From an uncultured Bacteroidota bacterium (lineage in GTDB: Bacteria; Bacteroidota; Bacteroidia; Flavobacteriales; Flavobacteriaceae), in assembly GCA_903842575.1 (NCBI GenBank), contig CAIMMM010000006.1, forward strand, positions 11,456 to 75,455: a stretch of DNA of 64,000 nt, written 5' to 3'. Of this stretch, positions 2,844 to 10,835 are shown piece by piece. A model generated the notes under the pieces. The model searched no databases, had not been told where the DNA came from, and was given only the letters and a program-made list of their open reading frames with translations. The position numbers and the translations under genes are program-made. Positions within the stretch are counted from its first letter, which is position 1. The number at the start of each line of letters is the position of its first letter.

Positions 2844-3572
2844 ATGGAAATTATGGGAAAAAAGACAATCGGAGAATATGTTGCAAAAGATTTTAGAACT
2901 GCAGCCGTTTTTTCAAAACACAAAATTGATTTCTGCTGCAAAGGCAATAGAACTTTAGAAGAAGTTTGCCAAAAAAAAGGATTAGACAATAAACTTATAC
3001 AAAATGAAATCATTTCAGTCTTGGAAACTAAAAATGATACTACTACCGATTTTAATTCTTGGGATTTGGATTTATTAATTGATTATATTGAGAAAAAACA
3101 CCATCGTTATATAGAAGAGAAAACACCATCTATTTTACAATTTTTGGAAAAACTATGCAAAGTCCATGGCGAAAGACATCCTGAACTTTTTGACATTAAT
3201 GTTTTGTTTAATATTGGCGCTGGAGCATTGGCGCAACACATGAAAAAAGAAGAATTAATTTTATTTCCATATGTAAAAAAATTATGCCAAGCAATAAAAG
3301 AAAATTCATCCATAGAACAACCTCATTTTGGCACCATCGAAAACCCTATTGCAATGATGATGGATGAACATGAAAATGAAGGAGAGCGATATAGTAAAAT
3401 TTCACAATTAACCAACAATTATACTCCACCAGAAGATGCTTGTAATACTTATAAAGTAGCCTTTTTAATGTTACAAGAGTTTGAGCAAGATTTACACAAA
3501 CACATTCACCTAGAGAATAACATCCTCTTTCCAAAAGCCAAGGAAATAGAAAAACAATTTTCTATTTTATAA
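2844..3572 (+). CDS. ric: iron-sulfur cluster repair di-iron protein (RIC / ScdA / YtfE family)
   Basis: N-terminal ScdA_N-like KTIGEYVAKDFRTAAVFSKHKIDFCCKG. Hemerythrin-like His/Glu motifs (HHRYIEE, HMKKEE, MMDEHENEGE, HIHLENN). Confidence 0.85.
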   Translation: MEIMGKKTIGEYVAKDFRTAAVFSKHKIDFCCKGNRTLEEVCQKKGLDNKLIQNEIISVLETKNDTTTDFNSWDLDLLIDYIEKKHHRYIEEKTPSILQFLEKLCKVHGERHPELFDINVLFNIGAGALAQHMKKEELILFPYVKKLCQAIKENSSIEQPHFGTIENPIAMMMDEHENEGERYSKISQLTNNYTPPEDACNTYKVAFLMLQEFEQDLHKHIHLENNILFPKAKEIEKQFSIL

Positions 3573-3604: not shown

Positions 3605-5719
3605 ATGGAAAAATATGTTATCAAAAGAAACGGCGATTACAAACTTTTTGAATCCTTTAAAATAAAAGACGCTATTGAAAAAAGTTTTAAAAGTGTCTCA
3701 ATTCCATATAATGATAGCGTTTTTGAAAGTGTTATGGTTTCTATTGACATAAAGGAAACATGGGCTGTTGAGGAAATTCAAGATTTGATTGAAAAAATGC
3801 TTTTTCAAAAAGAGTATTTTAGTGTTATGCGTTCATTTATGTTATTTCGTCATACGAGAAAATTACAACGGGAACATATTCAAGGATTAAATGACGATAC
3901 AACCTATGTAGATAGTACGCAAACTATCGAAGAATATATTTCTCAAACCGATTGGAGAATTAATGCCAATGCCAATACATCTTATTCCAATGCTGGCTTA
4001 GTAAATAATGTAGCTGGGAAAATAATTGCCAATTATTGGCTGGACAAAGTATATACAAAAGAAGAAGGTTATGCCCATCGAAATGGTGATATTCATATCC
4101 ATGATTTGGATTGTTTGACTGGTTATTGTGCGGGATGGAGTTTGAGAGTTTTACTAAATGATGGCTTTAATGGTGTTCGTGGACGTGTGGAAAGTAAAGC
4201 GCCTTCCCATTTTAGAGAAGCACTTGGACAAATGGCAAATTTTCTGGGCATTCTTCAAAGCGAATGGGCCGGAGCTCAGGCTTTTAGTTCATTTGACACT
4301 TATTTGGCTCCGTATATTTTTAAAGACAATTTGTCATTTGATGATGTTTTAAAAGCGGTTCGAAGTTTTGTCTACAATTTGAATGTTCCAGCGCGTTGGG
4401 GGCAATCCCCTTTTACAAATATTACTTTAGATTGGGTTGTGCCTTCCGATTTAAAAGAGCAAATTCCAACCAAAAATGATCATCATTTATTTGAAACTAT
4501 AACCGATGAAAACGTAATCATTCGTTGCAAAGAAAGAGGGGTTGCTTCTTTAATTGAAATGCGTTATGAACATTTTCAAACCGAAATGAATTTGATTAAT
4601 AAAGCCTATTATACTGTAATGACAGAAGGTGATGCCAATGGACAACCTTTTACTTTTCCAATTCCAACTGTAAATATTACCGAAGATTTTGATTGGAATG
4701 GCGAAAACACCGAAATACTTTTTGAAAATACTGCTAAAATTGGTTCGTCCTATTTTCAAAATTTTATTGGAAGTCAATATGTTTTAGATGAATTAGGAAA
4801 TCGCGTTGAAAATCCTAATGCCTATAAACCCAATGCCGTTCGCAGCATGTGCTGTCGTTTGCAACTCGATTTAAGAGAGTTGTTAAAACGGGGGAACGGT
4901 CTTTTTGGAAGTGCCGAAATGACGGGAAGTATTGGTGTTGTAACAATTAATATGGCTCGATTAGGTTATTTATATGAAGGAAATAAAGAAGCTCTTTTCG
5001 ATCAATTGGATAAGCTAATGGAGATTTCAAAATCAACTTTAGAGAAAAAAAGGGTATTTATTCAGCAAATGTATGATAGAGGTTTGTTTCCTTATACTAA
5101 AAGATATTTACCTCATTTTCGGAATCATTTTTCAACCATCGGTGTTAACGGAATGAACGAGATGGTTCGAAATTTCACAAATGATAAAGACGATATTTCA
5201 TCTGATTTTGGCAATGATTTTTGTTTAGAAATTTTAAATCATATCCGAAATCGGATGAAAGAATTTCAAGAGCAAACAGGGAATCTGTACAATCTTGAAG
5301 CCACGCCAGCAGAAGGGACTACTTATCGTTTTGCCAAAGAAGATAAAAAACGTTTTCCAAATATTCTGCAAGCCGGAACTGGTGAGAATATCTATTACAC
5401 TAATAGTTCTCAAATTCCTGTTGATTTTACCCAAGATCCATTTGAAGCTTTACTTATGCAAGACGAATTGCAATGTAAATATACAGGAGGAACGGTTTTG
5501 CATTTATACATGAATGAAAGAATAAGTTCTTCTGAAGCGTGTAAAAATTTTGTAAAAACAGTCTTGACAAATTTCAAATTGCCTTATATAACGGTAACAC
5601 CTGTATTTAGTGTTTGCCCTATACATGGATATTTAAACGGAGAACATGAATATTGTCCAAAATGTGACGAAGTCTTAATTGAAAACCAAAACAACACACT
5701 ATATGAAAACAAAGACTAA
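3605..5719 (+). CDS. nrdD: anaerobic ribonucleoside-triphosphate reductase NrdD, catalytic body without the glycyl-radical motif (stops early)
   Basis: N-terminal ATP-cone (VIKRNGDYKLFESFKIKDAIEKSF), class III RNR body and a Zn-ribbon (CPIHG..CPKC). The ORF stops 40 nt after CPKC, and no RVxGY motif occurs in this frame. Confidence 0.85.
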   Translation: MEKYVIKRNGDYKLFESFKIKDAIEKSFKSVSIPYNDSVFESVMVSIDIKETWAVEEIQDLIEKMLFQKEYFSVMRSFMLFRHTRKLQREHIQGLNDDTTYVDSTQTIEEYISQTDWRINANANTSYSNAGLVNNVAGKIIANYWLDKVYTKEEGYAHRNGDIHIHDLDCLTGYCAGWSLRVLLNDGFNGVRGRVESKAPSHFREALGQMANFLGILQSEWAGAQAFSSFDTYLAPYIFKDNLSFDDVLKAVRSFVYNLNVPARWGQSPFTNITLDWVVPSDLKEQIPTKNDHHLFETITDENVIIRCKERGVASLIEMRYEHFQTEMNLINKAYYTVMTEGDANGQPFTFPIPTVNITEDFDWNGENTEILFENTAKIGSSYFQNFIGSQYVLDELGNRVENPNAYKPNAVRSMCCRLQLDLRELLKRGNGLFGSAEMTGSIGVVTINMARLGYLYEGNKEALFDQLDKLMEISKSTLEKKRVFIQQMYDRGLFPYTKRYLPHFRNHFSTIGVNGMNEMVRNFTNDKDDISSDFGNDFCLEILNHIRNRMKEFQEQTGNLYNLEATPAEGTTYRFAKEDKKRFPNILQAGTGENIYYTNSSQIPVDFTQDPFEALLMQDELQCKYTGGTVLHLYMNERISSSEACKNFVKTVLTNFKLPYITVTPVFSVCPIHGYLNGEHEYCPKCDEVLIENQNNTLYENKD

Positions 5720-5867
5720 CGAAGTTTTAGAACAAAATCAACATTTAAGAACAAAATGTTTGGTTTATACTAGAGTTATGGGGTATCACAGGCCTGTGGA
5801 AAGTTTTAATATTGGGAAAAAAGGAGAACACAAACAACGAGTTCATTTTAAAGAAAGTGTGTGTTAA
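5703..5867 (+). CDS. detached NrdD glycyl-radical domain in the +1 frame (frameshifted C-terminus or stand-alone peptide)
   Basis: Translation ..KCLVYTRVMGYHRPVESFNIGKKGEHKQRVHF carries the RV-x-GY glycyl-radical signature. ATG at 5703 (the track ORF begins at TTG 5679). It overlaps the nrdD stop, and nrdG overlaps its own end. Confidence 0.6.
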   Translation: MKTKTNEVLEQNQHLRTKCLVYTRVMGYHRPVESFNIGKKGEHKQRVHFKESVC

Positions 5868-6535
5868 CAAAACCTATTTATAATATTACACCATTTACCT
5901 TATTAGATTATCCAAATAAATCGGCTTGTATCCTTTGGTATTCAGGTTGTAATATGCGGTGTTTGTATTGCTATAATCCCGAAATTGTTTTAGGAAAAGG
6001 AACTCTTTCTTTTTCTGAAGCAATTTCTTTTTTAAAAAAGAGAAAAGGATTGCTTGATGCTGTTGTTTTTAGTGGTGGTGAGTGTTTAATTCATAAAAAT
6101 ATTATTGAACAAATCAGAGAAGTAAAAGCATTAGGGTTTTTAATAAAAATTGACACCAATGGCTCAAATTCATTGGTTTTACAACAATTGATTGCAGAAA
6201 ACCTAATTGATTATGTTGCATTAGATTTCAAAACTGTTAGAAGTAAGTTTCAGGAAATCACAAATTCAAATTTGTTTATAGAATTTGAAAAATCATTTGA
6301 AACACTTCTTAATAACAATGTGAAATTTGAAATAAGAACTACTTACCACTCCAATCTTATATCAAATGATGATTTAAAAGAAATGTCGAATTATCTTGAA
6401 TCCAAAAAATATTTGGGAAATTACTATATACAATCTTTTAAAAATAATGTTGAAACCATCGGAAAATTGCCAGCTTCATTAAGAATAAAGGAAACTAGAA
6501 ACGCATTAAATTATAGTGTGTTTTTTAGAAATTAA
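5861..6535 (+). CDS. nrdG: anaerobic ribonucleoside-triphosphate reductase activating protein (radical SAM)
   Basis: ITPFTLLDYPNKSACILWYSGCNMRCLYCYNP has the CxxxCxxC motif. Follows nrdD directly. GTG start. Confidence 0.85.
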   Translation: MLTKPIYNITPFTLLDYPNKSACILWYSGCNMRCLYCYNPEIVLGKGTLSFSEAISFLKKRKGLLDAVVFSGGECLIHKNIIEQIREVKALGFLIKIDTNGSNSLVLQQLIAENLIDYVALDFKTVRSKFQEITNSNLFIEFEKSFETLLNNNVKFEIRTTYHSNLISNDDLKEMSNYLESKKYLGNYYIQSFKNNVETIGKLPASLRIKETRNALNYSVFFRN

Positions 6536-7843
6536 TTTCAAGTTTTTTAATAGCTCAAAGACAATTATATACAATCCTACAAATATTCCCATCCCAAAAA
6601 GTACAAACACTGTATAAATCCAATGCAGTGAATCTTGAAATTTACTAAACGAAAGTATTTGATTAAAATACATCCAGTATCCTTTTTTTATTCCCAATAG
6701 CAATAGAGTCAACCAAAAAAGCATGAAAGAAATACTAAAGATTTTAGTTCCAATGTGTATTCTTTTTTCTGAAATAAAAGTGATTTTTTTCTCCAAGTCT
6801 AAAATATATGCGATTGAGGATAATAGTATTAGTGTGTTAATTCCAATAGTTGTTCCCATGGAATGAGCAACCGTAATATGGGTGCCATGAGTAAATAAAT
6901 TAATGGATGGAATAGATATTAATAAGGCTAAAACAATGTTTAAAAATATCCAAAAATTTGCCAAAAGCATAAATTTATAGGCTATCGAATATTCAATTTT
7001 CTTTTCTTTAGACAAGCTCTTTTTCCAATCATAAATTATTGAAAATAAAATAATCCATTCTGTCATACTGATACCATAAGCTAAATATCTAATCCATGGT
7101 GCCGTAGGAACAATGTAAATGTGATGCGCCCAACCAAACATTAAATTGATTAACCCAAGAAAGTAAAAGAAAAATGCTTTTTTAGATTGTGCATAACTAT
7201 CATCGTTACTGATTTTTGACATAACAAAGAGAGCCGTTCCATAAATCAACATATTCCAAGAACCCACATAGGAACCACCAGATTTCCATTGCATTGCTAT
7301 ATTTTGCACAAAATTATCTCTAAAATAAGGCAACATCCATAAATGTGCTTCCGTGAAATGATAGATCATAAACCCAATTCCTGTTGCCCACATCCAAAAA
7401 TAAACAGGCCAACTTTTAAATGACGGCAACATTGTTTTATAATAATTTATTCCAAATAAAATCCATCCTGAAACAATTGGAAAATAAAAATAGGGAGGGA
7501 ATTCTAAATATTCCCTTCCACTAAAATTATGTAAAACATAGGAGATAGCAATTCCAATTCCGGCACAAACAAAGAGCCAAAAATGTACCTTTATGAGTTT
7601 TAGATTATATATTTTAAGGTTGGGATTTGTGTTTAAATAATAATAAATTCCACCAATGGAAGAAAGTAATATCCAGGAAACAACGAAAAGAGTATGAAGA
7701 GGACGCAGCGCATTGAAAGGCAAAATGTCTTTCATAAAATCAGGGATGATGTATTGAAAGCCTGCCAATAATCCACAAAGCAAACCAAGAAGTAATGAAA
7801 TCAAACCTACTATAATAAAGTAAAAAGGATATTTATTTTTCAT
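6506..7843 (-). CDS. heme-copper oxidase superfamily subunit I-like protein (NorB/CcoN-like, divergent)
   Basis: About 12 predicted TM segments. Motifs RPLH (aa 47-50), YHFTEAH (161-167), WAHH (238-241) and THGTHITVAHSMG (318-330), which parallels the CcoN motif SHYTDWTIGHVHSG. Its start overlaps the upstream cytochrome c gene. Confidence 0.65.
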   Translation of the reverse strand: MKNKYPFYFIIVGLISLLLGLLCGLLAGFQYIIPDFMKDILPFNALRPLHTLFVVSWILLSSIGGIYYYLNTNPNLKIYNLKLIKVHFWLFVCAGIGIAISYVLHNFSGREYLEFPPYFYFPIVSGWILFGINYYKTMLPSFKSWPVYFWMWATGIGFMIYHFTEAHLWMLPYFRDNFVQNIAMQWKSGGSYVGSWNMLIYGTALFVMSKISNDDSYAQSKKAFFFYFLGLINLMFGWAHHIYIVPTAPWIRYLAYGISMTEWIILFSIIYDWKKSLSKEKKIEYSIAYKFMLLANFWIFLNIVLALLISIPSINLFTHGTHITVAHSMGTTIGINTLILLSSIAYILDLEKKITFISEKRIHIGTKIFSISFMLFWLTLLLLGIKKGYWMYFNQILSFSKFQDSLHWIYTVFVLFGMGIFVGLYIIVFELLKNLKLISKKHTII

Positions 7844-8270
7844 GATTCACTTTTTTATATTTAATTCTAACCCAACCATCGTTTTCTATTGAAGCGTTCA
7901 CATTTGGATAATGCCCTGTTTTATCTATTTCTTCTAAAAACTGATATAGCGCCTCTTTTTCTGTCTCTTTAAAATTAAATCTTGGCATAGCTTTTATGCC
8001 GCTGCTCAACAAGGCTTTGATATATGCTTTATCTTTACCTTTAACGGAGACAATATTAGTCAAGTCGGGCCCAAGATAGCCGCCTAATCCGTAAATTTGA
8101 TGACAGGAATTGCAGTTGTTTGTCAACCAAATATTTTCACCATCAATAGCTTTTTTAGATAAATGAATTGTACCATAATCAGATTTTGAAGTATAAATAG
8201 TGAAATTATAAATACTAAAAATGATAATTAAAATAAGTAGAATTATTAAATATATCCTTGAGTGTTTCAT
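7833..8270 (-). CDS. membrane-anchored mono-heme cytochrome c (NorC-like position)
   Basis: One CNSCH heme-binding motif, a downstream AMPRF (candidate Met ligand) and an N-terminal TM helix. I prefer the start at MKHSRIYLI (ATG 8270..8268) over the longer track ORF. Confidence 0.7.
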   Translation of the reverse strand: MKHSRIYLIILLILIIIFSIYNFTIYTSKSDYGTIHLSKKAIDGENIWLTNNCNSCHQIYGLGGYLGPDLTNIVSVKGKDKAYIKALLSSGIKAMPRFNFKETEKEALYQFLEEIDKTGHYPNVNASIENDGWVRIKYKKVNHEK

Positions 8271-8294
8271 TAAGCAATAAAATATCTTAATCAC

Positions 8295-8329
8295 AAAAAA
8301 GCGTGAATTAAAACAGTTCACGCTTTTTT
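8295..8329 (-). terminator. rho-independent terminator-like hairpin after the fasciclin gene
   Basis: AAAAAAGCGTGAA-ttaaaacag-TTCACGCTTTTTT. On the minus strand the stem is followed by a T-run. Confidence 0.55.
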
Positions 8330-8989: not shown

Positions 8990-9005
8990 TATGATATTAA
9001 TCATA
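8990..9005. promoter_or_regulatory. Fnr/Crp-type palindrome TATGAT-atta-ATCATA upstream of the fasciclin gene
   Basis: Perfect 6+4+6 inverted repeat. Overlaps the stop codon of the 9001..10248 gene. Centre about 72 bp upstream of the fasciclin ATG. Confidence 0.5.
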
Positions 9006-10248
9006 AAAGCGGAGAATTTTTATTTTTCTTTATAGAATAAATAGATGTGATTCCAATTCCAGTAACTAGTATAATAGCAATTCCAAAGAGCATTCCATTC
9101 ACGTGGGGTATAACAGTATAACTAAACGATGCAATGCCTTGTATTGCAAGTATAATTTCATTTAATAAAACCCCAATTGAAAAAATAATTACGCCTATTT
9201 TAATTTGTTTATTGAAATGAATGAAATGATTGGCATAAATATAAAAGAGCAAGAACAAACTAATAATTGCTAATAAAACCAGGTGTAAATAGGCAATGAC
9301 TATGGGTCTAAATCCAAATGCTAATTGACTTAAAGCGGGTATTGTTGAGCCCAATTGAAGTAAAAATTTTACGCTCAATGAAAAACCAACAAAAAGCAAA
9401 ATATAGCGCAAAAAGAATGGGTGATTATCAATCAATTCTTGTTTTGTTTTTACAAGAAGAATTAAAAATCGGAGCCATGAATAAACTTGAATGAAAGATG
9501 CAATTACCGTTACTACATATATCCAAATAGGCAAATCCCACCAAAGAGTAGATAAAAAATAAGCGGGAATACATGAAAAGAAAAAGAGTTTAAAGACAGT
9601 TGCGTAAAAGGGATTTTCGGAGGCTTTCAAATTCAAAAAAGAGAATAATAATCCCATACAAGCAAAGAAAAACCAACCGTTATATTGGAAATGCAAATAG
9701 AAATAAATGGAAGCTAAATATTCTTCCTGATGAATATTTTTAGTAATCATCATATATGCTAAAGCAAAAGTGCCTAGTGATGAAAGAATAGCAAAAAAGA
9801 GTGCTGCTTTAAACCAATTTTTAGATAAATCATCGGCGGGAATTAACTTTAAATCTTTGATGAAATAATAAGCAAAAAAGCAAAAAACTAGAATTGACGC
9901 CGTCGAAAATAGAATAGAGAAAAATCCATATCCTTCTATGCAGAAAAAAATTAACATGCCGTAAGCACAAATTAAATTTGCCACAAGAATGGCATTGTAT
10001 TTTTTACAACTCTTGTCTAATGTGTCTCGCCACGCCTCTTTCTTCACCAAAAAAGAAATCATTAACACCATCAAAGTATGACTAATCCAACCCGAAAACG
10101 CAAAATGGGAATGGGAATGTTGCAAATGTTTTTGGTCAAAAAAAGGAAATTCAAAACCAATTTTATATCGCATTAAGACACCAATTAGAGCAACAATTAA
10201 AAGGTTAATTAATGAAAATTTTAACCAAAACTTACTATTAAATTTCAT
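9001..10248 (-). CDS. polytopic membrane protein with a His-rich motif, function unknown
   Basis: 415 aa, about 12 hydrophobic segments, motif HLQHSHSHFAFSGW near TM2. Its ATG overlaps the TAA of the upstream Crp/Fnr gene by 1 nt. Confidence 0.55.
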   Translation of the reverse strand: MKFNSKFWLKFSLINLLIVALIGVLMRYKIGFEFPFFDQKHLQHSHSHFAFSGWISHTLMVLMISFLVKKEAWRDTLDKSCKKYNAILVANLICAYGMLIFFCIEGYGFFSILFSTASILVFCFFAYYFIKDLKLIPADDLSKNWFKAALFFAILSSLGTFALAYMMITKNIHQEEYLASIYFYLHFQYNGWFFFACMGLLFSFLNLKASENPFYATVFKLFFFSCIPAYFLSTLWWDLPIWIYVVTVIASFIQVYSWLRFLILLVKTKQELIDNHPFFLRYILLFVGFSLSVKFLLQLGSTIPALSQLAFGFRPIVIAYLHLVLLAIISLFLLFYIYANHFIHFNKQIKIGVIIFSIGVLLNEIILAIQGIASFSYTVIPHVNGMLFGIAIILVTGIGITSIYSIKKNKNSPLL

Positions 10249-10835
10249 TAGTAATATATTTTATGATTGATGATTTCTACCTTATTGCTAGCACTCATTT
10301 TAGCAAAAACACGTATTACAGTTTCTACTCTTAATCCCGTAAAATTAGCAATCTCTTGTCGTGTGAAAGGTACAATTTCTTTTTTGTCGCTATTTACTTT
10401 CTTATGTGCCTTTAAAAAAGCAATGATTCTAAACTCTGGTTTTTGATTAATTATAGCTGTAGTAGATTTTGCTTTGGAATGGATTCGTTTACACATCAAC
10501 TCCAAGAACTGTTTTTGAATATTAGGATATTCATCTAATATTTTTAAAAACTTTTCTTTCGACAATTTAATAATCTTGCTTTCTTGAAATGCAATCGCTA
10601 TTGATGGATATGTCTCATTAATAAACAAAGGAGGTTCACCAAAACTGTCTCCTGAATTAAAATATCCTTGTGTAAATTCTTTCCCTTCATCATTTGAATT
10701 AATCATTTTTACATTGCCATCCACAATTTGATAATAAAAATTAGCCGTTTCATTTTCATTAAAAATTACTTCGCCTTTTTTATATTCTTTAGCAATAGCT
10801 CCCCAAGTAAAAAGTAAATCTAAATCTATTTGCAT
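10248..10835 (-). CDS. Crp/Fnr family transcriptional regulator (no N-terminal Cys cluster)
   Basis: cNMP-binding-like beta-roll (GDSFGEPPLF). C-terminal HTH TRQEIANFTGLRVETVIRVFAKM with an E-T-V-x-R recognition helix like FNR. Only one Cys in the whole protein. Confidence 0.8.
   Translation of the reverse strand: MQIDLDLLFTWGAIAKEYKKGEVIFNENETANFYYQIVDGNVKMINSNDEGKEFTQGYFNSGDSFGEPPLFINETYPSIAIAFQESKIIKLSKEKFLKILDEYPNIQKQFLELMCKRIHSKAKSTTAIINQKPEFRIIAFLKAHKKVNSDKKEIVPFTRQEIANFTGLRVETVIRVFAKMSASNKVEIINHKIYY

Follow-up and report, generated by a model that had tools for sequence, protein, structure and literature searches.

A conserved two-gene form of the anaerobic ribonucleotide reductase NrdD with its predicted glycyl-radical site on a separate small protein

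NrdD, the anaerobic ribonucleotide reductase of class III, is known as a single-chain enzyme, and its glycyl radical is placed on the catalytic chain (PMC9531940). The canonical proteins of phage T4, Escherichia coli, Thermotoga maritima and Prevotella copri belong to one family (NF006126/PF13597) and share the order of their parts: an ATP-cone, a barrel with the cysteine loop, a zinc ribbon, the glycine loop with its RVxGY motif and a C-terminal tail, with the activase gene nrdG adjacent. In this study, we investigated an nrdD locus in a 64,000-nt stretch of DNA from an uncultured member of the Flavobacteriaceae (the window; positions are counted from its first letter). The locus belongs to the same family and keeps this order of parts, but the glycine loop and tail form a separate polypeptide with its own start codon. 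The evidence points to a real, conserved and widespread two-chain variant of a well-known enzyme that has apparently not been described before. We found no account of a split NrdD in the full-text literature, a search in which subscription journals were not covered, so that an earlier mention is possible.

Small stand-alone carriers of a glycyl radical are likewise found in GrcA (YfiD) and phage T4 Y06I, which use the activase of the large barrel enzyme, and phage-borne copies exist of both GrcA/YfiD and the NrdD peptide considered here. Oxygen cleaves glycyl-radical enzymes at the glycine, and GrcA rescues pyruvate formate-lyase; spare-part radical proteins are known for the formate-lyases only (2026 review, PMC13450708). 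There are clear differences between GrcA and the NrdD peptide. GrcA is homologous to the C-terminus of the formate-lyases (Pfam Gly_radical, PF01228), whereas the NrdD peptide matches PF13597 only, and a Pfam scan of the small open reading frame (ORF) gave no PF01228 match at E <= 0.01. GrcA also serves as a backup for an enzyme that is encoded at another site and possesses a radical domain, whereas the large subunit here has no such domain and the small gene lies between nrdD and nrdG.

Division of a reductase over two genes has a parallel in the class II enzyme NrdJa/NrdJb of Pseudomonas aeruginosa, in which two adjacent genes place a C-terminal functional module on a second chain. That enzyme depends on adenosylcobalamin, and its second chain carries a cysteine-rich zinc finger and an IscU-like module, not the radical site (PMC9669993). 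P. aeruginosa holds both NrdJa/NrdJb and an NrdD of the split type. The class I enzyme NrdA/NrdB also keeps its stable radical on a separate, smaller subunit that docks onto the larger one, a likeness of logic only: NrdB is an unrelated, ferritin-like metalloprotein, the chemistry depends on oxygen, and the radical is passed over a long range and not by a loop placed in the barrel.

The two genes and the site of the cut

The large nrdD ORF (3605-5719, plus strand) encodes 704 aa and ends in a TAA stop. It matches Pfam NRDD (2.2e-161, profile positions 2-528 of 562) and the ATP-cone (2.4e-13), and it scores 1074.8 bits against NF006126 (cutoff 548) over profile positions 3-649 of 684. The ATP-cone (aa 3-86) is followed by the catalytic barrel, the zinc ribbon and a variable tail (nt 5666-5716). 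The finger loop lies at M415-C416-C417-R418 (nt 4847-4858; RSMCCRLQLD, aa 413-422), and the same four residues are invariant across split and fused members (M303, C304, C305 and R306 in the numbering of alignment A2). Both the finger-loop cysteine pair and the zinc ligands, C671-x2-H674...C684-x2-C687 (nt 5615-5665), are intact. The ORF therefore has the ATP-cone and barrel, the finger-loop cysteines, the zinc ribbon and the adjacent NrdG activase of the NrdD family, and what it lacks is RVxGY on the same polypeptide: the frame ends at 5719, before the motif, as ...CPKCDEVLIENQNNTLYENKD*. A sequence-only reading of this DNA had described this end of the frame, and we find it borne out.

The same reading had located the motif in a separate ORF in the +1 frame relative to nrdD, running from 5679 or 5703 to 5867, and this too holds. 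The frame carries RVMGY, is open from TTG 5679 or ATG 5703 and encodes ...RTKCLVYTRVMGYHRPVESFNIGKKGEHKQRVHF; read over its full extent from 5679, it gives ...RTKCLVYTRVMGYHRPVESFNIGKKGEHKQRVHFKESVC. Comparison with related sequences identifies ATG 5703 as the true start, because relatives keep 'MKT...' at this point, often preceded by a stop codon at a distance of one to three codons. The putative radical-bearing subunit (5703-5867, plus strand) is thus a protein of 54 aa and ~6 kDa, MKTKTNEVLEQNQHLRTKCLVYTRVMGYHRPVESFNIGKKGEHKQRVHFKESVC, with its predicted radical glycine at Gly27 (codon 5781-5783). The small ORF overlaps the last 17 nt of nrdD, and its end is overlapped by 7 nt by the GTG start of nrdG at 5861, both as reported before. 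The nrdG gene (5861-6535, plus strand, 224 aa) encodes a radical-SAM activase that matches TIGR02495 (NrdG2; 1e-56, 191 bits, cutoff 131) and Pfam Radical_SAM.

The small ORF matches positions 648-683 of the 684 in NF006126 and 531-562 of the 562 in Pfam NRDD (PF13597). With the large ORF covering positions 3-649 of NF006126, the small ORF takes over in the family profile where the large one leaves off, and the division of Pfam NRDD follows the same pattern. Taken together, the two ORFs do have the glycyl-radical motif, and the locus is a two-chain variant of the NrdD family. Scanning the window ORFs against Pfam and NCBIfam returned no dedicated model for the small protein from either collection. 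Its exact 54-aa sequence is on record in public collections, where its 90% cluster has 65 members.

Alignment to NrdD structures shows where the chain is divided. The large ORF aligns to residues 8-707 of the 743 in P. copri NrdD (PDB 8p23) and reaches residue 614 in the alignment to T. maritima NrdD (4coi), and the core of the small protein, mapped with a profile built from 26 small proteins, aligns to T. maritima residues 615-645, which include RIVGY. Nothing useful came from PDB sequence searches that used either the small ORF by itself or a fragment joined across the junction. The four zinc-ligand positions (C671, H674, C684 and C687) all fall in the large ORF in the alignments to both structures. 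Cys19 of the small ORF, at which the last ligand had been expected, therefore does not belong to the zinc site; this cysteine is also replaced in some small proteins. The ribbon itself reads C-P-I-H...C-P-K-C, in which one ligand is histidine and not cysteine, compared with C-x2-C...C-P-K-C in P. copri NrdD. The linker from the CxxC to the glycine is ~30 residues long in fused members of this clade (for example, CPRCDEAILKEKPKGAVLIDEERELCEIWTRVMGY), as against ~12-13 residues in the P. copri and T. maritima enzymes. On these alignments, the cut falls within this extended linker between the zinc ribbon and the glycine loop.

A diverged duplication had been raised as a possible origin of the cut, in which a loose repeat of the sequence at 5669 recurs at 5721 with an offset of 52 nt. 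The repeat exists, but it does not exceed what chance gives in DNA this rich in A: local alignment scores it at 18, compared with 14.6 +/- 2.6 in shuffles, of which 12% reach 18. The alignment thus gives no support to a duplication as the source of the frameshift. As a separate matter of architecture, four loci of the same clade (L224, L231, L236 and L100) have ORFs of ~570 aa that seemingly lack the N-terminal ATP-cone, their starts having been picked by rule; these apparent ATP-cone-less members include fused (Maricaulis) and split (Vogesella) forms.

Conservation of the split and its spread across bacteria

Whether the split is shared by close relatives had been put forward as a check, with uniformly intact nrdD genes in the relatives as a sign of a simple lesion. 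The relatives prove to be split. A genome scan with the large ORF as the query returned 80 Flavobacterium loci, 79 of them scorable, and in all 79 nrdD stops soon after CP[KS]C and the motif is found on a separate ORF of 51-56 aa. The layout of the junction varies widely among these loci. Measured from the nrdD stop, the ATG of the small ORF is placed at -23 to +310 nt, and its frame relative to nrdD is +1 in 50 loci, 0 in 16 and +2 in 13; the 17-nt overlap in the +1 relation seen in the window recurs at 38 of the 79 junctions. An ATG-initiated small ORF is the only feature that all junctions share. Flavobacterium macrobrachii has two nrdD loci (L005 and L011), both split and differently arranged, one with the 17-nt overlap in the +1 frame and the other with a 15-nt gap in the same frame.

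The small protein is also found far beyond this genus. A word-indexed search with the 54-aa protein gave 2413 relatives, of which the best 120 are all 52-86 aa long, and a HMMER search of 1.84 billion cluster representatives gave 1079 matches, of which the top 150 are nearly all 49-145 aa long with a Met start; two of these look like fragments of a fused enzyme. Near two distant members, the called genes show nrdD (ATP-cone plus NRDD, 673-680 aa) followed by the small ORF, and at one of the two the order nrdD-large, small ORF, Radical_SAM is complete. This order, with nrdG in third place, applies at all loci for which genes had been called or the DNA itself was inspected. Scanning with a profile of diverse small proteins, together with three loci around the two distant members, gave 81 split loci of 81, and scanning with a Pseudomonas-type peptide gave 76 of 80. 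A catalytic-core profile led by the fused enzyme of Maricaulis still returned a split arrangement at 70 of 78 loci, so the split form predominates also in a ranking that favors similarity to a fused enzyme. With duplicates removed, this NrdD clade is represented by 276 distinct bacterial junctions, of which 267 are split and 9 fused. What had been read as a possible lesion of one strain is instead how the locus is normally laid out across a large NrdD clade.

Split genomes include Pseudomonas, Stutzerimonas, Halomonas, Achromobacter, Thiobacillus, Chromatiaceae, Janthinobacterium, Sutterella, Akkermansia, Verrucomicrobia, Omnitrophota and Elusimicrobia. Among the fused ones are Maricaulis, Propionicimonas, Cellulomonas and one Obscuribacterales genome. 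Between split and fused members, catalytic cores share 60-79% identity, which indicates that the two forms are close relatives and that the split enzymes are not degenerate. In P. aeruginosa, a 48-aa protein of the same kind occurs on >1000 contigs under the names 'anaerobic ribonucleoside-triphosphate reductase' and 'oxidoreductase', and in Pseudomonas jinjuensis the peptide lies 39 nt after a motif-less nrdD, with an identical sequence on record for the P. aeruginosa group. We considered an ecological rule in which split enzymes belong to oxygen-exposed bacteria and fused enzymes to strict anaerobes; the rule is not clean, as Maricaulis and Cellulomonas have fused enzymes and Sutterella and Omnitrophota have split ones.

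These surveys bear on the simplest explanation of the window, that of a sequencing or assembly indel that has broken one continuous ORF. The A-rich, low-complexity DNA of the junction would favor such an error. However, the junction has been read again in independent lake-water metagenome assemblies, with 0 differences in run X1 and with 9 substitutions and 0 gaps in a 1256-nt contig of run X3 that spans 5453-5942. The 267 split junctions come from different species and sequencing projects, and spacers of up to 310 nt lie beyond any single-base error. Together, the independent assemblies and the recurrence of the split rule out an artifact, to which we give next to no weight. Metagenome run X4 contains two further contigs of note. 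A 563-nt contig (~87% alike) aligns only over ~30 nt ending at 5669 and over 5778-5839, skipping 108 nt; its probable source is a related organism whose junction is built differently. The second contig shows a +1 indel at 5669 and a -1 indel at 5677 that offset each other within the tail of the large ORF.

An inactivating frameshift is a second explanation, in which nrdD would be a pseudogene and the small ORF its decaying remnant. The essential glycine is indeed missing from the large ORF, and such an enzyme might be dispensable to Flavobacterium species, most of which are aerobes. The pattern of substitution argues strongly against decay. Over a 38-codon core, the small ORF has a mean dN/dS of 0.04, and its variable sites number 14, 8 and 37 at codon positions 1, 2 and 3, so that nearly every codon varies at its third position and few vary at their second. 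The small ORF is under strong purifying selection. The large ORF is 83-89% identical across the genus and keeps all catalytic motifs, and the same layout is present in P. aeruginosa, in which nrdD mutants have phenotypes. The start codon of the small ORF is conserved as well, and outside the Bacteroidetes so is a ribosome-binding site. At 62 of 78 non-Bacteroidetes loci, a Shine-Dalgarno sequence (GGAG, AGGA, GAGG or AAGG) lies 5-12 nt before the small-ORF ATG, as in Stutzerimonas stutzeri (AAAGGAGAgtcaccATG), and most of the remaining loci have one ahead of an ATG two to three codons upstream. Bacteroidetes generally do without Shine-Dalgarno sites. With a dN/dS of ~0.04, conserved start codons and Shine-Dalgarno sites, the inactivating frameshift listed among the earlier options is ruled out, and we regard it as extremely unlikely. 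The small ORF instead behaves as an independent gene, with its own start and, in relatives, its own ribosome-binding site, and with purifying selection on its product.

A third explanation is recoding, in which a programmed +1 frameshift or a ribosomal hop of ~52 nt would yield one canonical NrdD chain. The 17-nt overlap in the +1 relation in the window and at 38 of 79 Flavobacterium junctions is of the required kind, since a +1 shift anywhere within 5679-5719 would fuse the two chains. However, neither the frame (0, +1 or +2) nor the distance (-23 to +310 nt) is conserved, and no single frameshift or read-through event would join the ORFs at 65 of 223 distinct junctions, while the rest would need three kinds of event. 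Inspection of the sequence by eye revealed no known shift-prone motif at the nrdD stop, and the conserved element is an ATG preceded by a ribosome-binding site. With three relative frames, gaps of up to 310 nt and the unjoinable junctions, recoding is ruled out as a general mechanism, and we consider it very unlikely as the explanation of the locus.

A two-chain reductase with an obligate small subunit

Our results favor the remaining option, a naturally split enzyme with a stand-alone radical-bearing peptide. We conclude that the locus very probably encodes a functional class III reductase whose catalytic chain is the product of two genes, the smaller of which supplies an obligate subunit. 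Two genes are present, both under selection; together they hold all the catalytic parts, and the activase is encoded next door. The comparison with GrcA/YfiD made in the sequence-only reading is apt as regards a stand-alone radical carrier and fails as regards a spare role. The partner of a GrcA-type protein has a radical domain of its own, whereas the nrdD adjacent to the small ORF has no glycine loop, here and at 267 of the 276 junctions. The large subunit thus lacks a glycyl-radical loop, and the peptide would be an obligate subunit rather than a spare.

We propose the following model for the enzyme. The ATP-cone, the zinc ribbon and the barrel, including its cysteine loop for the thiyl radical, would come from the large product (704 aa); the small product (54 aa) would contribute no more than the glycyl-radical loop (RVMGY, Gly27) and the tail at the C-terminus. 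The small gene would be translated on its own, in the window probably by coupling to termination on nrdD; the position of its ATG, 14 nt upstream of the nrdD stop, would fit termination-reinitiation. The glycine loop of the peptide would then enter the large subunit's barrel, much as the C-terminus of a fused NrdD does, with Gly27 placed beside the Cys416/Cys417 loop. NrdG, encoded directly downstream, would install the radical on the peptide, from which it would be handed to Cys416 or Cys417 for nucleotide reduction. We base docking and activation by NrdG on the fused homologues, whose cores are 60-79% identical, and on published structures. In P. copri NrdD, the C-terminal radical domain is mobile, becomes disordered and must leave the barrel (PMC11226230), which makes a detachable version structurally plausible.

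Evidence from P. aeruginosa suggests that such an enzyme works in vivo. Mutants in nrdD grow poorly without oxygen, and a cloned nrdDG stretch complements them (PMC4860495; PMC12284477); the NrdD protein is detected under anoxia only (PMC12284477). As the small ORF lies between nrdD and nrdG in close relatives, the complementing clone would include it. Given the mutant phenotype, the complementation and the anoxic protein, we consider it likely that the two-gene enzyme is functional in the cell. Transcription of a split locus can be followed in S. stutzeri, for which we used three stranded RNA sequencing runs of a strain other than that of the reference locus, L175. Sense coverage is 15-60x over most of nrdD, 91-197x over the small ORF (L175 2602-2757) and 50-135x over nrdG, so that in all three runs the small ORF and nrdG are covered ~2-4x as deeply as most of nrdD. 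Coverage dips between the genes, at a spacer that is not the same in the two strains. The higher coverage hints at a separate promoter, at differential stability of the mRNA or at a mapping bias from strain divergence. Two 'RNA' contigs of S. stutzeri (X21 and X22) were set aside as expression data, since they run to 27-41 kb at flat depth and are uninformative.

Several points weigh against the proposal of a two-chain enzyme. We found no RNA runs that contain the window sequence. The reading frames overlap in the window, and low-level +1 frameshifting may produce some fused protein there. Fused relatives live in similar habitats (Maricaulis, Cellulomonas and Propionicimonas), which leaves the split without a clean ecological reason. 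The ideas of oxygen repair and of activation of the free peptide, taken up below, are drawn from pyruvate formate-lyase and GrcA and from the chemistry of NrdD.

The likely benefit of the arrangement, by analogy with GrcA, is that oxygen damage would cost the cell one replaceable peptide of 6 kDa. The activase may also act on the free peptide, to which it would have easier access. A more far-reaching possibility, which we put forward tentatively and rate at less than an even chance, is that the peptide is an exchangeable cartridge: NrdG would activate it free or loosely bound, it would dock and be swapped after cleavage by oxygen while the 80-kDa subunit is reused, and phages would carry the 150-nt peptide gene alone to re-arm the host enzyme during infection.

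The placing of the glycyl-radical site on a mini-protein of its own, throughout much of a large and widespread NrdD clade, has practical consequences, among them a change in how these genes should be annotated. The large ORF looks complete, yet it would not work alone, and the small ORF is currently named as in P. aeruginosa or as a 'hypothetical protein'. The nrdD of P. aeruginosa or Flavobacterium, when expressed alone, would be expected to yield inactive enzyme. The split also offers a natural test system for how an activase recognizes the glycine loop and for how radical enzymes cope with oxygen.

Phage copies and the gene neighborhood

A scan of uncultivated viral contigs (IMG/VR) found 300 stretches that encode relatives of the peptide, and we examined the best 80 of these (L244-L323), covering flanks of 3 kb. 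The split nrdD arrangement is present at 4 of the 80 loci, while the other 76 have no tblastn match to the NrdD or NrdG of the window within 3 kb. These stand-alone peptides are ~45-60 aa long (for example, L284 3001-3150 and L288 near 3000), and genes for a tail fibre, a tape measure protein, an integrase, an internal virion protein, a primase and an endolysin-type M15 peptidase are among the neighbors at sampled loci. None of the 76 orphan-peptide contigs is among the 80 best viral contigs with an NrdD of this clade, and the loci in that second set are 51 fused, 17 split and 12 unresolved. A tblastn search of the deposited phage genomes in INPHARED with two of the viral peptides found no close relative, and the copies have so far been seen only in uncultivated viral contigs.

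A peptide gene without a nearby nrdD or nrdG at 76 of 80 viral loci supports action in trans. The phage copies may be orphan radical cartridges for host enzymes; if this is confirmed, they could work only with a large subunit supplied by the host, and they suggest a very small auxiliary metabolic gene. The same copies could be taken to favor a true spare part, in which the small protein would rescue an intact, oxygen-damaged NrdD encoded elsewhere, as GrcA does for its partner, and the adjacent large ORF would be a separate matter. Orphan genes in phage contigs do show that the peptide can be encoded away from nrdD. However, at every bacterial locus examined the peptide gene directly follows an nrdD without the glycine loop, there is no second nrdD in the window (from the ORF lists, with Pfam scans of the first 14 kb only), and both nrdD loci of F. 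macrobrachii are split. We therefore see little chance that the peptide is a spare, and we retain the two-chain enzyme with an obligate small subunit as the preferred reading.

Two variants of the peptide were seen in viral contigs. Some viral peptides (L245, L261-L263, L269, L275-L277, L281 and L305) have a cysteine-rich N-terminal extension before ERTRCEVWTRVMGY, with the pattern C-x-x-G-R-x-x-P-x-D-C-x-x-C-A-x-Y-x-P-G-L, which may form a small metal-binding module of its own. Some phages with a split nrdD (L419-L430) encode a longer small subunit of ~75 aa, with MLSEFEKAVLKNN... as its start, which is a distinct subtype of this protein.

In the window, the gene upstream of nrdD (2844-3572, plus strand) encodes a di-iron protein of the RIC/ScdA type for repair of iron-sulfur clusters (Pfam ScdA_N 2.2e-20, Hemerythrin 1.5e-13). 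It ends 32 nt before nrdD, and on this spacing the two genes probably form one transcription unit. Upstream of this gene row are two Fnr/Crp-type palindromes, ATGAT-N4-ATCAT (2730-2743 and 2785-2798, with no strand assigned), and a third copy (8991-9004) lies upstream of fasciclin, cytochrome c and COX1-like genes. The window thus holds 3 matches compared with 0.23 expected, and 0 of 100 shuffles reach 3. A regulator of the Crp/Fnr family is encoded at 10248-10835, and the palindromes are probably its binding sites and candidate sites of low-oxygen control. Converging on nrdG from the minus strand (6506-8321) are genes for a COX1-family membrane protein (445 aa) and a cytochrome c (162 aa), the former overlapping the 3' end of nrdG by 30 nt (6506-6535). 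These two are possibly a nitric-oxide-reductase-like pair, and together with the RIC gene they give the surroundings of nrdD the look of a neighborhood for low-oxygen or nitric-oxide stress.

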